This document shows positions 1,711 to 25,759 of a stretch of 32,088 nt of DNA, piece by piece. Made by a program: the position numbers and the translations under genes. The DNA comes from a virus, in IMG/VR virus record IMGVR_UViG_3300021168_000018. One strand, written 5' to 3'. The first letter of the stretch is position 1. The number at the start of each line of letters is the position of its first letter. The notes beneath the pieces were generated by a model that searched no databases, had not been told where the DNA came from, and worked only from the letters and a program-made list of their open reading frames with translations.

Positions 1711-1745
1711 AAAGACAAAGAGGGAGCCCGGTTAGGACCCCCTCT
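1711..1745 (-). terminator. Rho-independent terminator after the MCP gene
   Basis: Minus strand AGAGGGGGUCC-UAACC-GGGCUCCCUCU followed by UUGUCUUU, about 25 nt after the MCP stop. Confidence 0.75.
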
Positions 1746-1769
1746 CGGGAACGCGACTTGTTTCCGAAA

Positions 1770-2441
1770 CTAAACCGTGCCATCATCTCCGAGAAACAGG
1801 AAACGGCTATCAATCATGCCGACCTCAAAGCGGGAACGCGACTTGAAACGGTAAACTTCCATCTGGAACGACTGCCCAGATGCCGGATTCTCTTGGATGA
1901 TTTCCAAGGGGTCGCGGCGCTGAAAGACCAAGCACTTCTTCGGGTCGCCAAGAATCCAAACTTTGGAAGTCAGGAACCTGGATACCAGAAGCTTGTACAA
2001 GCCTTGCAGCGGGTTCACCGTGTTGACGTAACCCGTAGCGTCAGAGGACGCGGACGGAACAGACGGCTGCAACGTAGAATTCAGCAGCTTGGCTCCCACG
2101 AACTTGTCGATTGGCGAAACCAATAGAGTGTTCGGAGAGACCAAGAACTTGTTTCCAAGTGGGTCCGTAATGTTCATCAGCGAAATATCTGCCGATTCTA
2201 GGTTAGCTTGAGACAGACGCGTGAAAGTGGCAGGGCGATTGCCCTTCGGTAGAGTGTTGTATGTGCCGTTGCCCACTCCGCCAACGCCTACTGTATCGTT
2301 GTTGAAAGTCACATCTGGGTCGACAGTGACCCCCTGGACCGTGAATCCAGTGCCGATAATCTTCCCGATCACGTAAATTTCTTCCATGATCTTGAAGTTT
2401 TCGCCCATCTGGGATGCACGGTTCTTAATTTGTCCCGTCTG
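1770..2441 (-). CDS. Major capsid protein, exon 2 (223 aa; Mu gpT-like, HK97 fold)
   Basis: QTGQIKNRASQMGE...PNTLLVSP...VNPLQG...WILGDPKK...FQRRDPLE...YRFKSRSRFEVGMIDSRF resembles the gpT-like capsid C-terminal half. The first 39 codons of the track ORF are intron sequence. Confidence 0.9.
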   Translation of the reverse strand, partial: QTGQIKNRASQMGENFKIMEEIYVIGKIIGTGFTVQGVTVDPDVTFNNDTVGVGGVGNGTYNTLPKGNRPATFTRLSQANLESADISLMNITDPLGNKFLVSPNTLLVSPIDKFVGAKLLNSTLQPSVPSASSDATGYVNTVNPLQGLYKLLVSRFLTSKVWILGDPKKCLVFQRRDPLEIIQENPASGQSFQMEVYRFKSRSRFEVGMIDSRFLFLGDDGTV

Positions 2442-3303
2442 CATTCTGTTACTTGCTAACCCTGCGACAACTAGCAAAACTATCGCAAGGCGGACCACCT
2501 GTTTCCAGTGGTCTCTACTTGTCACCAAGCAGTTCGGACTATATCTTTTCGGAGTCATGCTGCCCTCCGAGTCTGGCGTGTAGTCTCTACGGATTTCATG
2601 AGTTTCTGAAAATGAGCCTTCCAGTAAGACCTATTTACATTTGTTCTAGTGTGACAAGGCACGCAAAGAGAAATCAAGTTGTACATCCAACAGTTCTTCT
2701 TATCGTAGTTTATGTGATGAACCGACAGACGCTTTGGGTTTTTCTTATCACACTCTCTACAAGTGTGATTGTCACGAACTAGAACTCTTCTCCTAAGCCT
2801 GCGAGTCCACCGTTCGTGATATGGATGCTCTGTAGAACCACCGTTCCATAGCGGATGATTCTTACCGGCCATGACACCGATGTGAGCCAAACTAAGAGCA
2901 TCCTTCTGAGCCTCTGTACGTTTCATACCTAGATTGTGAGAACCGTTTTCTCGATTATATCTCTTCAGTGACCTTGAAATTCTAGAGCCAACTTCAGGTC
3001 TCGAAGCTGGATTTCTCTTTCCAAGTTTAGATTGGCTAATTCTCTTTCGGCCTTCTTTCGTCTGACGACACATTTCTGTGCCATTCTTTTTGAAGAAAGC
3101 TATAACGGACTTACTGATTCGGCGACGGACGGAGGCTCTCTTAGCCGGGTTCTTGCTTCCCAGCTTAGAGGCCCTTATCTTGGCCTTTGTTGCTTCCGTA
3201 TGATGCCAACCTTTTCCTCTCATGATCTTTCCTCGGTATTGTCTCGTCAGTTGACGAGAGGTTCACCGATATAGCCAGATTTATCGACGACCAGTGTTAA
3301 CAA
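2442..3303 (-). mobile_element. Group I self-splicing intron (862 nt) in the MCP gene
   Basis: The 5' exon ends in U (GAU) and the intron ends in G (AGAAUG). IGS CUGGUCGUCG pairs with CGACGAU|CAG (P1 with U.G, plus P10). P3 CUGGC/GCCAG; P4 UCGGU/ACCGA; P5 CUCGUCA/UGACGAG; R GUAGAGACUACACG; S AAGAUAUAGUCC (P7 GACUA/UAGUC); P8 UCGGAG/CUCCGA; P9 hairpins with GUGA and GAAA loops. Removal restores the frame. Confidence 0.93.
2555..3223 (-). CDS. Intron-encoded homing endonuclease (NUMOD3 repeats + HNH)
   Basis: HHTEATKAKIRASKLG, QTKEGRKRISQSKLG and RTEAQKDALS repeats; GKNHPLWNGG; RDNHTCREC...VHHINYDKKN...NLISLCVPCH. The ORF starts after P4 and its last codons overlap P7/P8. Confidence 0.92.
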   Translation of the reverse strand: MRGKGWHHTEATKAKIRASKLGSKNPAKRASVRRRISKSVIAFFKKNGTEMCRQTKEGRKRISQSKLGKRNPASRPEVGSRISRSLKRYNRENGSHNLGMKRTEAQKDALSLAHIGVMAGKNHPLWNGGSTEHPYHERWTRRLRRRVLVRDNHTCRECDKKNPKRLSVHHINYDKKNCWMYNLISLCVPCHTRTNVNRSYWKAHFQKLMKSVETTRQTRRAA

Positions 3304-3711
3304 ATCGTCGTCAAACAATTCGCGCTCGAACGCCTCAATCATACCGAATTTCTGGTTGGTCAAGTGGCGGTCGAGTCCAACTACTGGATTGTCCTGGAAC
3401 TCTTGACCACGATCAACTCTCTTCGGTAGATTGGGACGGAACAGCGGAGCGTAATACTCTTGGAAGCGGCGGGATGCCACTTCTGTGACTAGATCAGGAT
3501 ATACGACCGGGACCGTGTTGTAACTGTTGATTGCATAAGTTTGGATACCCGCCCTCAACAGTTGGCCGAATGCAGACTCAGCATTAGCTTCCCGCAACCT
3601 AGTAGCCTGATTGTAGACAGACTCACGGAGGCGTTTGAAGCTGAGCTGAGGGCTGAACCAATCGATCTTGGCTGCGACCTCTTCCCATGGACCTACTGGA
3701 CGTGTGCTCAT
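3304..3711 (-). CDS. Major capsid protein, exon 1 (136 aa); spliced product 359 aa
   Basis: SD GGAGG; LREANAESAFGQLL...KFGMIEAFERELFDDD resembles the gpT-like N-terminal half. The spliced junction reads ELFDDD|QTGQIK. Confidence 0.9.
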
Positions 3712-3729: not shown

Positions 3730-4251
3730 TTAAATCGTCGTCAACTGCGTGTACTGCGGACGCAGGTTAATCAGGATTTGAGTTACGCCTTGAACGCCGG
3801 TGATTCCGATAGATGCAGAAGCAGAAGTTGAAGCGTATGGACCAGACATAGTGAAGAAGTTTTCAGGGGCGACGTAACCAATGACCGCCGAACCTGAAGC
3901 TGCCGTATGCCTGATTTTCTGGGGATCTGCACCAAACGTGACTGCGTCGCCAACGTTATACGTCGCATTGTCATCAACCGTGAACAAGCACATACCACGA
4001 GTGATGATAGCGATCCTAGGAACCGGGAGTGCTTGGTTCAAGCTAGGGATGTTGTTCGTATCGTTGGAAACACCGATGAACAGAGCGGCTGCGGTAGCGG
4101 AAGCTGCGTCGGCTGCTACGATAGGAGTCGCGACTAGGTTTACTGCGTCCCATTTCATCATATCGCCGGAGTTGAATTGGGTGATAAGATTGACGGGAAC
4201 GCCACTGACGCGCTCCTTTTCTATTTTTACTACGTTAAACGGTTGCGACAC
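3730..4251 (-). CDS. Capsid decoration/cement protein (DUF2190-like)
   Basis: Lies between protease and MCP; motifs GD(M/A)x, FIGVS, ITRGMCLF, YNVGDAV, VIGYV; SD GGAGG before GTG. Confidence 0.65.
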   Translation of the reverse strand: MSQPFNVVKIEKERVSGVPVNLITQFNSGDMMKWDAVNLVATPIVAADAASATAAALFIGVSNDTNNIPSLNQALPVPRIAIITRGMCLFTVDDNATYNVGDAVTFGADPQKIRHTAASGSAVIGYVAPENFFTMSGPYASTSASASIGITGVQGVTQILINLRPQYTQLTTI

Positions 4252-4266: not shown

Positions 4267-6822
4267 CTACTCGTCGTCTTTCTTCATGGGCACGCCAAGT
4301 TCGGCCAGCCCTTCTTGGAGATCAGAGTTCTGCCCGGATGTTCCCCAGGATGCAAATCCGCCTCTGGCTCCACTGCCTTCAACTGATTCTTGTAGACGTG
4401 ACAAAGCGCCTTCCGTAGCAGACTCTAGGAAGTACGCCGATTCCTTGATTTTCCTGATTTGCTGCTTGACCGTCTTGCCGAACAGTTGAGGTAGCAAAAC
4501 GTTCTTGGCGTTCTCAGGAATAATTTCCTTGTTGACCGCTTCACGGAGCAATCTGCGAGCGGTATCTCCAGAATGGATGTAGAACAGTTTCCCGCGGAAC
4601 ATCTGGATTCTGTCCTCTTTCTTGGCAACGGATTCGCGGAGACGCCTGACCAGACCCGCCAGATGTTCGATGCGGCGATTCGCTTCTCTGACGATCGGCT
4701 TGGCGACTCGTGCTTGACGGCGATTACGCGCGAAGCGGGAAGTCTTCAGCTTATAGGACTTGCCCACACCTGACGTGGATTTGTCCTGTTTGCCAAAGTC
4801 TTCATCGCTATCGTCATAACCGCGAGTGGGATCTGCTCCCTTGGGAAGTGCGCTATGCCCAGAGTGCCCGAGTCCCCCGGCATAAGACGCTTTCTTGATT
4901 GGAGCCCCTTGACCGCTGTCATCCGCTTCTCGTGACAGACGGCGACCGCGACTGGTACGTACTGGACGGCGGCGATTGCTTGCTTCAGCTGCTACGTTTG
5001 GACGCTCGGTATCAAAGCCTTCATCTTCGAACGCTTCATCCATGTCGTCCATGTCATCGTCGTCGTCATCCATATCACCATCATCGTCGCCTTCTGTGGA
5101 AGCCACAGTGCGTGAAGAACCTGGAGCGCCTCCACCGGCTGGCTGACCTCCGCCCCCGCCCATTCCACCTGCTTGCGGAGGCATTCCACCACCCATTCCA
5201 TCCTCGTCTTCGTCCTCCATGCCTTCGTCTTCAAAGCCTTCCATGCCCTCATCCTCAAGACCTTCCATGCCTTCGTCTTCGATCCCCTCTTCAAAATCAT
5301 CGTCTGATTCTGAGGAAGCCACTCGCCGGCGATTGCCAGAAGCCTTGACCGTTTGATATTTGCCGTCACCGCCGTAGTCGTTGTGGTCGCCGATATCGCC
5401 ACGGTCCTCTTCGTCTTCTACATCGGCTTCTTCAAGCTCGTTTTCGGTGTCTTCTGGGTCCGGTTCGTCTACAATTTGATTGTCTTCCCCTGTCCCGTCT
5501 GAGGCTTGCAGTCGCCGCTTACCTTTGCGGAAACCGCGCTTGCCAGATCCGGCAGAGGCCTTCACGTGCTTTTTCGCCATTGATTCCTTACCTCCACTAG
5601 GATTGATGTTGCTGTACTGCTCTTCGTTGGACTGACCCGGACCCTTGCCTGAAATAGAAGCAGCGGCATGTAATGTTCGTGACGCCGCGAATGCCGCTTC
5701 TTTTACCTCGTCGGGATTGTCCGAGTTGTAAGCCGAAACGAGAGAGTCAGCAACTTCCTTTAGTTTCTCGGGACTAAGGGACCCTGCTTCTCTCGTTCTC
5801 TTGGATTTGCTGCCCATGATTCTATTTACTTTGTTCCTGCGACTTTCTAGCATCTTGATGAAACCGCCTCGTGCTGCCGGTTCTGTAACGACGTCTGCAC
5901 TGTCTACACGTTGAAATTCTTCTACATAATTGACTTCCTCACCGCCCATTTGACCTTGCCGAGTCTTGCCCACGGCGTTGATGGAAATGCCGAACAGGTT
6001 GACCGCCGTGGGGTCAGTCAAAATTGTGTCAATCATGCTGGTCAGCCACTTCGCGGAAGGGAAGAAGTGGAGCTTGCCATTGAGCCTAGTTTTGCCGGTC
6101 TTGGGATTCTTGTCTACGAAGCAGTCGCTGTACCATCCCACCAAATCCTTCATGCTGCGTTCTGGCAGCGTTTTCTCTGTGATCGCGTCTGGATGGTCGG
6201 CGTAGGCTTTGGCACCGTTGAAAACCTTGACGCCAGATTGGAGCGCTTCGGCGGAATAAAAGTTGCGATCGCGCGAATTTCCAATTCCCTCCTCTATGAT
6301 GGTTACTAGATAGACTCTGCCTTTGCCGTTTTGTTTCTTACCATCTAGAGGCTTACTAATTTCGTCTCTACCCTTTTCCGTAAAAGGGTGGTTGAATGAA
6401 GATTCACGTATCTTAGAAGCCTTGAAACGGCGGGATTCATGAGTCCCGGGCTCAGCGTTATCCCAAGGATGTCCGAATTTCGAGCTAAACTCTTTATCTT
6501 TATCTAACGCTCTTGCTCCGTTTTGTGCCCATGCACCCATCTTATCCCATTCTCTAGACGTCCCATCACTAGAGTACCAATTTCTAATCTGACTAACGTC
6601 TTTGTCGTTAGCATTTTGCCTTAGTCTACTAAGAGCATCTGCTATGTGGTCTTCAGATGGAATCTTTGGTCTACGATTAGTGGTGTTTCCAGAACCTTTT
6701 TTCCCGCCTCTAGGTCCTGAGCCTGGACCGCCAGCGCGTATTTGTCGTCCACGCTTATCGGAAATCAATCGCTGGACACCCGATCGTTGAAGCTGTCCCT
6801 GCGAACTTGCTGAGGTGGTCAT
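4267..6822 (-). CDS. Prohead protease-scaffold fusion (851 aa)
   Basis: Protease domain at about aa 165-325: VTIIEEG...NFYSAEAL...AYADHP...GISINAVG...SADVVTEPAARG (candidate catalytic His and Ser). It is followed by a long acidic/Gly disordered linker and a C-terminal helical scaffold-like region. The gene lies directly upstream of decoration and MCP. Confidence 0.85.
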   Translation of the reverse strand: MTTSASSQGQLQRSGVQRLISDKRGRQIRAGGPGSGPRGGKKGSGNTTNRRPKIPSEDHIADALSRLRQNANDKDVSQIRNWYSSDGTSREWDKMGAWAQNGARALDKDKEFSSKFGHPWDNAEPGTHESRRFKASKIRESSFNHPFTEKGRDEISKPLDGKKQNGKGRVYLVTIIEEGIGNSRDRNFYSAEALQSGVKVFNGAKAYADHPDAITEKTLPERSMKDLVGWYSDCFVDKNPKTGKTRLNGKLHFFPSAKWLTSMIDTILTDPTAVNLFGISINAVGKTRQGQMGGEEVNYVEEFQRVDSADVVTEPAARGGFIKMLESRRNKVNRIMGSKSKRTREAGSLSPEKLKEVADSLVSAYNSDNPDEVKEAAFAASRTLHAAASISGKGPGQSNEEQYSNINPSGGKESMAKKHVKASAGSGKRGFRKGKRRLQASDGTGEDNQIVDEPDPEDTENELEEADVEDEEDRGDIGDHNDYGGDGKYQTVKASGNRRRVASSESDDDFEEGIEDEGMEGLEDEGMEGFEDEGMEDEDEDGMGGGMPPQAGGMGGGGGQPAGGGAPGSSRTVASTEGDDDGDMDDDDDDMDDMDEAFEDEGFDTERPNVAAEASNRRRPVRTSRGRRLSREADDSGQGAPIKKASYAGGLGHSGHSALPKGADPTRGYDDSDEDFGKQDKSTSGVGKSYKLKTSRFARNRRQARVAKPIVREANRRIEHLAGLVRRLRESVAKKEDRIQMFRGKLFYIHSGDTARRLLREAVNKEIIPENAKNVLLPQLFGKTVKQQIRKIKESAYFLESATEGALSRLQESVEGSGARGGFASWGTSGQNSDLQEGLAELGVPMKKDDE
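5216..5287 (-). repeat. Three imperfect 24-nt tandem repeats encoding G(I/L/F)EDEGME
   Basis: GIEDEGME-GLEDEGME-GFEDEGME in the acidic linker. Confidence 0.8.
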
Positions 6823-23939: not shown

Positions 23940-24194
23940 TCACAGCTTCTCTGGATACTGTAAAGGTACGAACCTGACATCATCAGATCCAGTCCCGTGT
24001 AGAAGTGGGGTGCCTGATGATGCGTTTGTAACAACGGTGTCCGCAGCAGCATTCACTAGTTTGCAATTTGTGAAATCATTGCCAGACACTTGGACAGCGA
24101 TGCCAGATTTGACCATCGCTCTGGTCGTAACAGGATTCAATGTAGAAGAAACTACGGTAACTCCGTCGCTCTTTTTCAATGTGGCAGTTGCCAT
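23940..24194 (-). CDS. Hypothetical protein (84 aa)
   Basis: SD AAGGAG; TAATG coupling. Confidence 0.7.
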   Translation of the reverse strand: MATATLKKSDGVTVVSSTLNPVTTRAMVKSGIAVQVSGNDFTNCKLVNAAADTVVTNASSGTPLLHGTGSDDVRFVPLQYPEKL

Positions 24195-25759
24195 TATGCA
24201 CTCCTTTTCTTCTTAAAGATAACTCGCCCGAATAGGCCGGATTTGTTTGCGTGTCTAAGTGCTTCCACTTGCTTCACTCTCCTGAGTTTCCCTTTGCTGA
24301 GAGCGTAGACAGGTATTTTCCTTTTCAGAGCATGAACTGTTTCACTGAACACCCCGGCTGTGAGACGCTTCCCTTTCGCTGGCTTGAGCACGAGGCGTTT
24401 AGATTTATCTATCTTCTCATGGAAATATCCCATGCCTAGCTCTGCGTGCTTCTTTGTCGTTGGAACGCTCACGCCTTCATTCGGGAATGCTTCTTGGATG
24501 CGGTCTATGTTCGCCTCTTCAGCGTCTGTATTGTAGTGAGACATTGGACGAGCGAAATATGTTTTCTTCGCTTCTCTGAGGAAGTTGCCCACTCTGGACT
24601 CGAAGGTCCTAGACGTTTTCATCTCTTTAGGCTTTAGAGCAGAGAGTTTATGACTTCCATTGCTATTGCTGCTCACAGCCATCCTATGACCGGCTGGCGA
24701 TTGTACAATAGAATGGATAGCTTGGACTGCTCCTTCTGTACCAGTCAATCGAGAGCCAACTTCTAAAACTTTCCAGCCAAGTTCCTTTAGATGCTCCAGC
24801 GCTTCCTCATGACCACCCTTCAACTCTTCCTTTTGTTGCTCAGGAGTCCGTGGAGTAGTTGGTTGATTTTGCTGCATCTGCTGAGCGGCTTGCTTCGCTG
24901 CTCTATCTTTCTGTGCCTGAGCAATCATATTCAATTGAGGCTGAGTGCGGCTGACGACCTGCATCATGTTCATTGTGCGCGGGTCGTTTTGCAGATTCTG
25001 CTGCATAGACTTTTGCTGATTGGTTTTGGCTGAACCGGCGTCTCTAGGATTTCTTACTCCCCACTTTTGACCCTTGACGCCATGCTCTCGCACTTCTGGA
25101 TTTTCCATTATGTCTTGGTGGTGACCCAGAATCGACTTGGTCATGTCCTGGTCTGTGCCACGACCGGCCATTTGTCCAGTGGTAGCGAGATACGATTCGT
25201 ACTCTGGTTTCTCGAAAACATCTTCTGGAAGCTGAAGTGATGCGCCTGCTCGTGACGCCACTAGTTTCTTCGTCGTGTGCTTCTTTACAAAAGCACGCTC
25301 CCTGAATTTCCACATTGGAATAGCGTCAATCCCACCGAAGAATTTGTCGTCATCATAATGTTGTTTGAAGCACCGTTTAGCAGCATCGGATGAGGCAAAA
25401 CCCAACATGACCTTGTCCTCATCAAATTCTGCTCCGTCTGGCGTGTTGCAATGAACGACGTAGGCGAAAGCAGCATCTTCGTTTGGTCCCACAAATACAT
25501 CAAGTGCGTCACCATCTACTCCTTCTGTGCCGGGGATGTATCCGTATGGCAGACGCATCTTGGTGCGCCACTCTTCGCCGTCGTCATCGACTCCCTTACG
25601 GACACTCCCCTTGCGATTCTCTATGCTGATTGGGATATTCTGGAACGTGGTCTTACCGTGGAGCTTACGATTTTCACGAAGGCGAATCATCTTCACCTTG
25701 AAATCGTGAATCTCCTTGGGTCCCTGGAGTATCGTCCGGCCACGATCGTCTACGTACAA
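24194..25759 (-). CDS. Multidomain (polyvalent-type) protein: inorganic pyrophosphatase-like domain + HGVKGQKWG module + NDT-like domain (521 aa)
   Basis: IPISIENRKGSVR...PYGYIPGTEGVDGDALDVFVGP...FDEDKVMLGF (phage PPase-like); VREHGVKGQKWGVR; C-terminal TYFARPMSHY...AGVFSETVHALKRKIPVY (nucleoside 2-deoxyribosyltransferase-like pattern). Confidence 0.78.
   Translation of the reverse strand: MYVDDRGRTILQGPKEIHDFKVKMIRLRENRKLHGKTTFQNIPISIENRKGSVRKGVDDDGEEWRTKMRLPYGYIPGTEGVDGDALDVFVGPNEDAAFAYVVHCNTPDGAEFDEDKVMLGFASSDAAKRCFKQHYDDDKFFGGIDAIPMWKFRERAFVKKHTTKKLVASRAGASLQLPEDVFEKPEYESYLATTGQMAGRGTDQDMTKSILGHHQDIMENPEVREHGVKGQKWGVRNPRDAGSAKTNQQKSMQQNLQNDPRTMNMMQVVSRTQPQLNMIAQAQKDRAAKQAAQQMQQNQPTTPRTPEQQKEELKGGHEEALEHLKELGWKVLEVGSRLTGTEGAVQAIHSIVQSPAGHRMAVSSNSNGSHKLSALKPKEMKTSRTFESRVGNFLREAKKTYFARPMSHYNTDAEEANIDRIQEAFPNEGVSVPTTKKHAELGMGYFHEKIDKSKRLVLKPAKGKRLTAGVFSETVHALKRKIPVYALSKGKLRRVKQVEALRHANKSGLFGRVIFKKKRSA

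Follow-up and report, generated by a model that had tools for sequence, protein, structure and literature searches.

A group I intron with a predicted HNH homing endonuclease lies between invariant codons of the major capsid gene of an uncultured soil phage

Group I introns that interrupt phage capsid genes and carry HNH endonucleases are already known. The major capsid protein (MCP) gene of LittleE, a mycobacteriophage of Cluster J, is interrupted by an HNH-bearing intron of about 0.8 kb, for which splicing was established by reverse transcription PCR (RT-PCR) and N-terminal sequencing (PMC3706429). The same paper cites the lactococcal phage Tuc2009 as a case of a capsid-gene group I intron. 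Here, we analysed a window, meaning the whole stretch of 32,088 nt under study, from the IMG/VR virus record IMGVR_UViG_3300021168_000018, an uncultured soil phage of 91,991 nt that is estimated to be 65% complete. In this window an MCP gene (3711..1770) is split by a group I intron which contains the open reading frame (ORF) of an HNH protein, as a preceding sequence-only reading had proposed; homologue alignment, intron-less alleles, RNA structure and protein-family matches all back that proposal. Its implication that introns are rare in capsid genes was overstated, given the published cases, which include an HNH-bearing and spliced one (PMC3706429). New here are the host family, uncultured soil phages with a Mu gpT-like MCP, and the insertion site. 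All positions below are those of the window, and all features described lie on its minus strand.

The present element shares several traits with its LittleE counterpart: both are group I-type introns, measure about 0.8 kb, reside in an HK97-fold MCP gene, carry an HNH ORF, follow a U, end with a G and are absent from sister phages. In contrast, the HNH gene of LittleE lies on the opposite strand, while here it occupies the P6a loop in sense orientation, and splicing is known for LittleE but predicted for the present intron. The host lineage, the capsid family (here Mu gpT-like) and the insertion site are unrelated between the two. The T4 td intron with I-TevI and the T-even nrdB intron with I-TevIII (PMC2988022) resemble the present intron in three respects: they have an endonuclease ORF, RNA structure masks its Shine-Dalgarno (SD) sequence and start codon, and they occupy a coding site of high conservation. 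Of the two endonucleases, I-TevIII belongs to the HNH type, as predicted for the present enzyme, whereas I-TevI is of the GIY-YIG type. The td endonuclease ORF is looped out of P6a, as in the present intron, and the T4 td and nrdB introns carry P2 and P7.1/P7.2. Unlike those two, which reside in genes of nucleotide metabolism, the intron described here lies in an MCP gene, is without P2 and P7.1/7.2, and has P9.1 and P9.2. I-HmuI and I-BasI are nicking HNH enzymes of Bacillus phage introns. In phage PhiPA3, the HNH enzyme of the gp210 intron acts on an essential gene of related phages in its intron-less form, and this activity has been demonstrated (PMC11620839). These systems share an intron-encoded HNH protein with the present locus and provide a precedent for a role in competition between phages; their targets, however, are RNA or DNA polymerase genes, and the predicted nuclease domain of the present protein is C-terminal, following NUMOD3.

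In the window, three ORFs follow each other, of 154 aa (3711..3247), 222 aa (3223..2555) and 262 aa (2558..1770). The ORF list consequently shows the capsid gene as broken, with capsid ORFs of 154 and 262 aa plus an HNH gene, just as had been anticipated for automated annotation. The exon/intron borders, at 3304/3303 and 2442/2441, were read from the sequence and stand where they had been placed before, since the codons on both sides are adjacent in the closest intron-less loci. Exon 1 (3304..3711) comprises 136 codons, encodes MSTRP...ELFDDD and has the 3′ end GACGACGAT, its last codon GAT ending at 3304. Exon 2 (1770..2441) comprises 223 codons and a stop codon, encodes QTGQIK...DDGTV and starts with CAGACGGGA, its first codon CAG beginning at 2441. 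When 3711..3304 was joined to 2441..1770 by script, the 359-aa frame reading ELFDDD-QTGQIK at the junction (...FERELFDDD/QTGQIKNRAS...) was reproduced. In the unspliced RNA, the exon 1 frame runs into a stop codon after 18 intron codons, and the truncated product of 154 aa that had been expected corresponds to ORF 3247..3711. An intein was rejected as the nature of the insertion because, with a stop 18 codons into it, the exon frame is not open. A strong terminator-like hairpin of 12 pairs with a U-rich tail (1718..1746) is situated just past the MCP stop codon.

Over its 136 residues, exon 1 is 87–93% identical to the N-terminus of its nearest homologues without the intron. Exon 2 by itself matches Pfam PF10124 (Mu-like gpT) with 25.4 bits against a cut-off of 20.1, as well as PHROG 371, annotated "major head protein". 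A search with exon 2 in a collection of 5.8 billion proteins returned more than 100 proteins of 340–375 aa, the best of which, P0001 (359 aa), is 92% identical. This intron-less protein, 92–93% identical to the exons, was used as a stand-in for the spliced product in whole-gene Pfam matching and modelling. It matches PF10124 with 43 bits (residues 53–172) and PF25209 (Phage_capsid_4) with 36.3 bits (residues 76–349), and both matches cross the junction. The AlphaFold (AF2) model of P0001, built from the family alignment, reached a pLDDT of 85.5 and a pTM of 0.83, and Foldseek related it to the D3 capsid (9ous; E 2.6e-14) and the HK97 capsid (1ohg; E 1.4e-12). Residues 135–139 form a short loop in this model, directly before the long spine helix of residues 140–165. 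Judged by these sequence and fold matches, the interrupted gene is one HK97-fold, Mu gpT-like major capsid gene. The head-maturation-protease match of the protein encoded upstream and the terminator-like hairpin past the stop codon agree with this. Both exons are under purifying selection: dN/dS with respect to the nearest relatives is about 0.02–0.1 in each, which indicates that the split capsid gene has been kept functional.

The insertion is exact. Full-length homologues of 355–360 aa align to exon 1 plus exon 2 with no gap over the junction, and this comparison with intron-less relatives, which the sequence-only reading had named among its checks, came out contiguous over DDD/QTG. E131, L132, D135, D136, Q137 and Q140 are invariant in an alignment of 69 sequences, so that the break sits within the most conserved motif of the family. 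For the DNA comparison, close-relative loci were fetched from IMG/VR (4) and from JGI metagenomes (39). The contiguous sequence GAYGAYGAY/CARACNGG, with the slash marking the insertion point, is present in 46 of the 47 locus entries surveyed, as 35 distinct 48-nt versions, and the remaining entry covers residues 206–359 only, short of the site. The closest intron-less site is identical to the ligated site of the window at 44 of 48 nt; the intron-less site of the L002 type reads ...GACGACGAT/CAGACTGGA.... In seven loci, tblastn placed the last residue of exon 1 (136) and the first of exon 2 directly next to each other in the DNA, with no HNH gene present, and the MCP gene is flanked by the same neighbours as in the window, encoding a 173-aa protein before and a 246-aa protein after it. 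The capsid gene is also uninterrupted in 34 more loci from more distant family members. The insertion is present in none of about 76 related loci.

Two database entries bear on the question of other carriers. P0045, from a Logan contig of 4,889 nt, is a 232-aa ORF that starts with MLISSWLKSNRV, continues with QTGQVK... and is 79% identical to exon 2. It begins 12 residues before QTGQ, and the residues ahead of this motif read ...SNRV, compared with ...LASNRM/QTGQIK in the window. By its sequence, it is probably the exon 2 ORF of a further capsid allele that carries an intron, with the same insertion site and a similar intron 3′ end; the carrier lineage appears to be rare. P0135, from a JGI contig of 1,860 nt, is a distant family member (52% identical) that reads ...ELFDDDQTG, then diverges and reaches a stop after 21 residues. 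A frameshift may account for this, or another insertion may lie two codons past the site of the present intron. The IMG/VR loci L053 and L054, which are related to P0135, are uninterrupted.

The inserted element (2442..3303) is 862 nt long, begins with UUGUU, ends with AAUG, and has a GC content of 45.5% compared with 52% in the exons. Going by its sequence and predicted pairings, it is a group I intron with canonical architecture, in which all of the core helices named previously (P1/P10, P3, P4, P5, P7, P8 and P9) were recovered and P6/P6a, P9.1 and P9.2 could be added. P1 is formed by exon nucleotides CGACGAU (3310..3304) and the guide GUCGUCG (3291..3285), with a U3304·G3291 wobble at the 5′ splice site. 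The contiguous guide nucleotides CUG (3294..3292) pair with exon 2 CAG (2441..2439) in P10, which has 3 bp only. P3 joins UCUGGC (3279..3274) to GCCAGA (2577..2572), two strands about 700 nt apart. It is followed by P4 (UCGGU/ACCGA, 3269..3265 with 3237..3233) and by the P5 hairpin (UCUCGUC/GACGAGA, 3259..3242) with its AACU loop, where the UGA that ends the exon 1 frame (3249..3247) falls at the boundary between L5 and the P5 3′ strand. P6 (GGA, 3232..3230, with UCC, 2593..2591) leads into P6a (CAUGAG, 3224..3219, with CUCAUG, 2602..2597), whose 612-nt loop contains most of the ORF. In the 3′ core (2537..2602), P7 (GACUA, 2585..2581, with UAGUC, 2541..2537) forms a pseudoknot with P3, and the P8 hairpin (UCGGAG/CUCCGA, 2570..2549), with the HNH stop codon UGA in L8, is connected to P7′ by the J8/7 segment AAAAGAUA. 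Three hairpins, P9 (2532..2515, GUGA loop), P9.1 (2513..2493, GAAA loop) and P9.2 (2491..2459), precede the terminal G at 2442. A group II intron was rejected, as the ends UUGUU...AAUG do not follow GUGYG...AY and the ORF encodes an HNH protein, not a reverse transcriptase; no group II Rfam match appeared even at E ≤ 10.

The proposed structure agrees with unconstrained folding. When the ORF loop was replaced by GAAA, the resulting 270-nt RNA folded into exactly the proposed nested helices at −99.1 kcal/mol, compared with −70.2 ± 4.7 kcal/mol for dinucleotide shuffles (z = −6.1). In the unconstrained minimum free energy (MFE) structure of the full 882-nt precursor, all pairs of P1 (7/7), P3, P4, P5, P6, P6a, P8, P9 and P9.1 were found, while P7 is missing because it belongs to the pseudoknot. 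At gathering thresholds, the Rfam scan of the whole window produced no match. In E-value mode, RF00028 (Intron_gpI) was matched significantly at 2772..2515 (E 6.7e-5 in a 2.1-kb search; E 7e-7 and the sole match in the whole 92-kb record), but the score of 28.9 bits stays below the gathering score of 50, probably because the 222-aa ORF sits in the P6a loop. In a screen of phage introns, Rfam often recovered only part of a ribozyme that is split by an endonuclease loop (PMC11878797). The Rfam alignment covers the 3′ core at high posterior probability, namely AGACUA (P7), CGCCAGAC (P3′), the P8 hairpin, AAGAUAUAGUC (J8/7-P7′) and the P9 hairpin, and this core matches the Rfam consensus AGACUA...cGgCaGac...AAGAUAUAGUC. 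Rfam misplaces P1–P6 inside the HNH ORF, and its positions for P3–P6 were rejected, since unconstrained folding recovered the upstream P3–P6a set; the true 5′ half of the intron lies directly past the splice site, and about 620 nt separate it from the 3′ half further downstream.

The intron ORF (2555..3223) encodes 222 aa, with NUMOD3 repeats followed by a C-terminal HNH nuclease domain. Pfam NUMOD3 scores 25.4 bits against a cut-off of 20.4, and more NUMOD3-like repeats can be recognized by eye at approximately residues 7–27, 56–72 and 100–122. PHROG families of HNH endonucleases match the protein down to E 8.5e-13, and it aligns to the HNH of PDB 5h0m. The HNH motif is intact and includes the catalytic and zinc residues C155-x2-C158, H169, H170, N182, C187-x2-C190 and H191. 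An HNH paralogue was not found in the 92-kb record, nor was a close relative of the protein in IMG/VR, JGI metagenomes or GenBank phages; the nearest relatives in the protein collection are at most 44% identical over about half the length (best, 44% over 54%). The ORF is closely interwoven with the ribozyme. Its SD sequence GAGGA overlaps P4′/P6, its AUG lies within the 5′ strand of P6a, and its final 16 codons span P6a′, P6′, P7, P3′ and the 5′ strand of P8. Such overlaps of endonuclease ORFs with intron core sequences have been described (PMC3984707), and a sequestered ribosome-binding site is documented for T4 intron endonucleases (PMC2988022). A sigma-70-like promoter was not found on the sense strand inside the intron.

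The end of the HNH ORF also meets the start of the third ORF. Its stop TGA (2557..2555) overlaps the ATG (2558..2556) of the 262-aa ORF as ATGA in the P8 loop. The 262-aa ORF continues into exon 2, and its product from unspliced RNA would be an N-terminally truncated piece of the capsid protein preceded by a 39-aa intron-encoded leader. The overlap could couple translation in the unspliced RNA, but it is probably a coincidence.

We interpret the insertion as a mobile group I intron that encodes an HNH homing endonuclease and is located between the invariant codons for D136 and Q137 of an HK97-fold MCP gene, and we assign this reading a probability of about 0.88. The splicing, cleavage and homing that we infer would proceed as follows. 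The pre-mRNA would fold into the ribozyme, with the guide CUG-GUCGUCG aligning the end of exon 1 (P1, with the U·G wobble) and the start of exon 2 (P10), a registration which is read directly from the nucleotides. Guanosine-initiated transesterification would then excise 862 nt and yield the mRNA for the 359-aa capsid protein. The NUMOD3 and HNH protein would nick or cut the capsid gene of co-infecting relatives that lack the intron, close to the conserved ERELFDDDQTGQ-coding site, and repair would copy the intron into the cut allele. Since the site encodes invariant residues, target phages could not easily escape. By analogy to PhiPA3 gp210 (PMC11620839), the HNH activity may handicap competing phages.

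Several observations weigh against this interpretation. The Pfam HNH match of the 222-aa ORF, at 19.5 bits, falls just below its cut-off of 21.4, and the Rfam membership score lies below the gathering score, as stated above. A P2 helix was not found in the intron, and neither were P7.1/7.2. In addition, the exon 1 frame lets ribosomes travel 54 nt into the intron, through the 3′ strand of P1 and as far as P5, and this could interfere with folding. Among the 5.8 billion proteins, none identical to the spliced product was found (best 92%). Finally, homologous intron DNA for a covariation analysis was not found in IMG/VR (searched with a core DNA pattern and with intron-3′-end/exon 2 patterns), in JGI metagenomes (searched with the latter patterns) or in GenBank phages (blastn and tblastn). 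When ORFs made up of exon 1 alone plus an intron read-through tail were searched for, only the window's own protein was found.

The lack of close relatives of both the HNH protein and the intron in IMG/VR, JGI metagenomes and GenBank phages also suits a different history, in which a true group I intron has an endonuclease that is no longer active in homing. The intron would then be a fixed, vertically inherited passenger, and its ORF might be maturase-like or without a role. The low similarity of the nearest HNH homologues (≤44% over about half the length) and the marginally sub-threshold Pfam HNH match point in the same direction. Nevertheless, the 222-aa ORF is intact and has retained all metal, catalytic and zinc-ligand residues of the HNH motif together with the NUMOD3 repeats. 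Moreover, the sporadic occurrence of the intron, which is absent from about 76 relatives, is the pattern of a recently mobile element, and P0045 hints at a second carrier lineage with the same site. We therefore regard loss of homing activity as unlikely, although it deserves consideration. Still less probable is that the insertion does not splice at all, with the capsid gene being either a pseudogene in a defective phage or expressed as two polypeptides from the 154-aa and 262-aa ORFs. It is true that both capsid fragments are ORFs with start codons and that the ATGA overlap at 2558..2555 could couple translation. However, the break falls between invariant residues just before the long HK97 spine helix, a split homologue occurs in none of the roughly 76 loci, no second capsid gene is seen in the window, and both exons are under strong purifying selection. 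It would also be an unlikely coincidence for such an insertion to have a complete group I fold of outstanding thermodynamic stability with P1 and P10 in the correct register, which makes a non-splicing insertion hardly credible.

The sequence-only reading had also raised the idea that splicing could gate capsid output. In an extended version of this idea, translation of exon 1, folding of the ribozyme and translation of the HNH ORF would exclude each other, and splicing would act as a regulatory gate or timing switch for capsid versus endonuclease output. Ribosomes from exon 1 would reach L5, the SD sequence and AUG of the HNH ORF are buried in P4′/P6/P6a, and its last 16 codons coincide with the core from P6a′ to P8, so that the 54-nt read-in and the overlaps of ORF and core would render translation and folding mutually exclusive. 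Sequestration of the ribosome-binding site and interference between translation and splicing are known for T4 intron endonucleases and bacterial group I introns (PMC2988022, PMC3984707). On the other hand, overlaps of this kind are common by-products of the compaction of introns and endonucleases and do not require an adaptive role for the phage, and the capsid intron of LittleE is spliced efficiently with no gating reported (PMC3706429). A regulatory gate thus seems rather improbable to us. If it did exist, the intron would determine how, in the late phase, virion production is balanced against the attack on intron-less competitors.

As a mobile intron with a predicted homing endonuclease, the element would be an ordinary selfish one, chiefly of value for annotation. 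The gene it breaks, that of the MCP, is the main marker gene for phage classification and completeness estimates in this soil-phage family. If splicing occurs as predicted, one more essential and very highly expressed virion gene would depend on a ribozyme. That the intron sits on invariant codons where the HK97 spine helix starts is in line with the notion that homing endonucleases settle on sites which their targets cannot mutate. Beyond this, homing endonucleases may serve competition between phages (PMC11620839).

The genes around the capsid gene form a virion gene block. The 173-aa gene (3730–4251) and the 246-aa gene (970–1710) that flank it are syntenic in all relatives checked, with 42–79% identity. 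No Pfam or PHROG match was found for either product, and both are candidate decoration, scaffold or head-completion proteins. Further upstream on the coding strand, an 851-aa protein (4267–6822) has a head-maturation-protease match (PHROG 15531) at residues 164–343. The protease part is followed by a long acidic, Gly-rich low-complexity region with DEGMEG repeats, and the whole is probably a fusion of protease and scaffold. Past the 246-aa gene, and still within this block, the second gene downstream of the capsid gene encodes a 240-aa methyltransferase (238–960; PHROG 6564, E 5e-17) whose N-terminus carries a CxxC...CxxC zinc ribbon. In a more distant part of the window, a 521-aa protein (24194–25759) matches large multi-domain virion-associated proteins (PHROG 4272, 20705 and 4660) as well as a DarB-like antirestriction family, with E-values of 1e-21 to 1e-27 overall, and it may be an ejected or internal virion enzyme.

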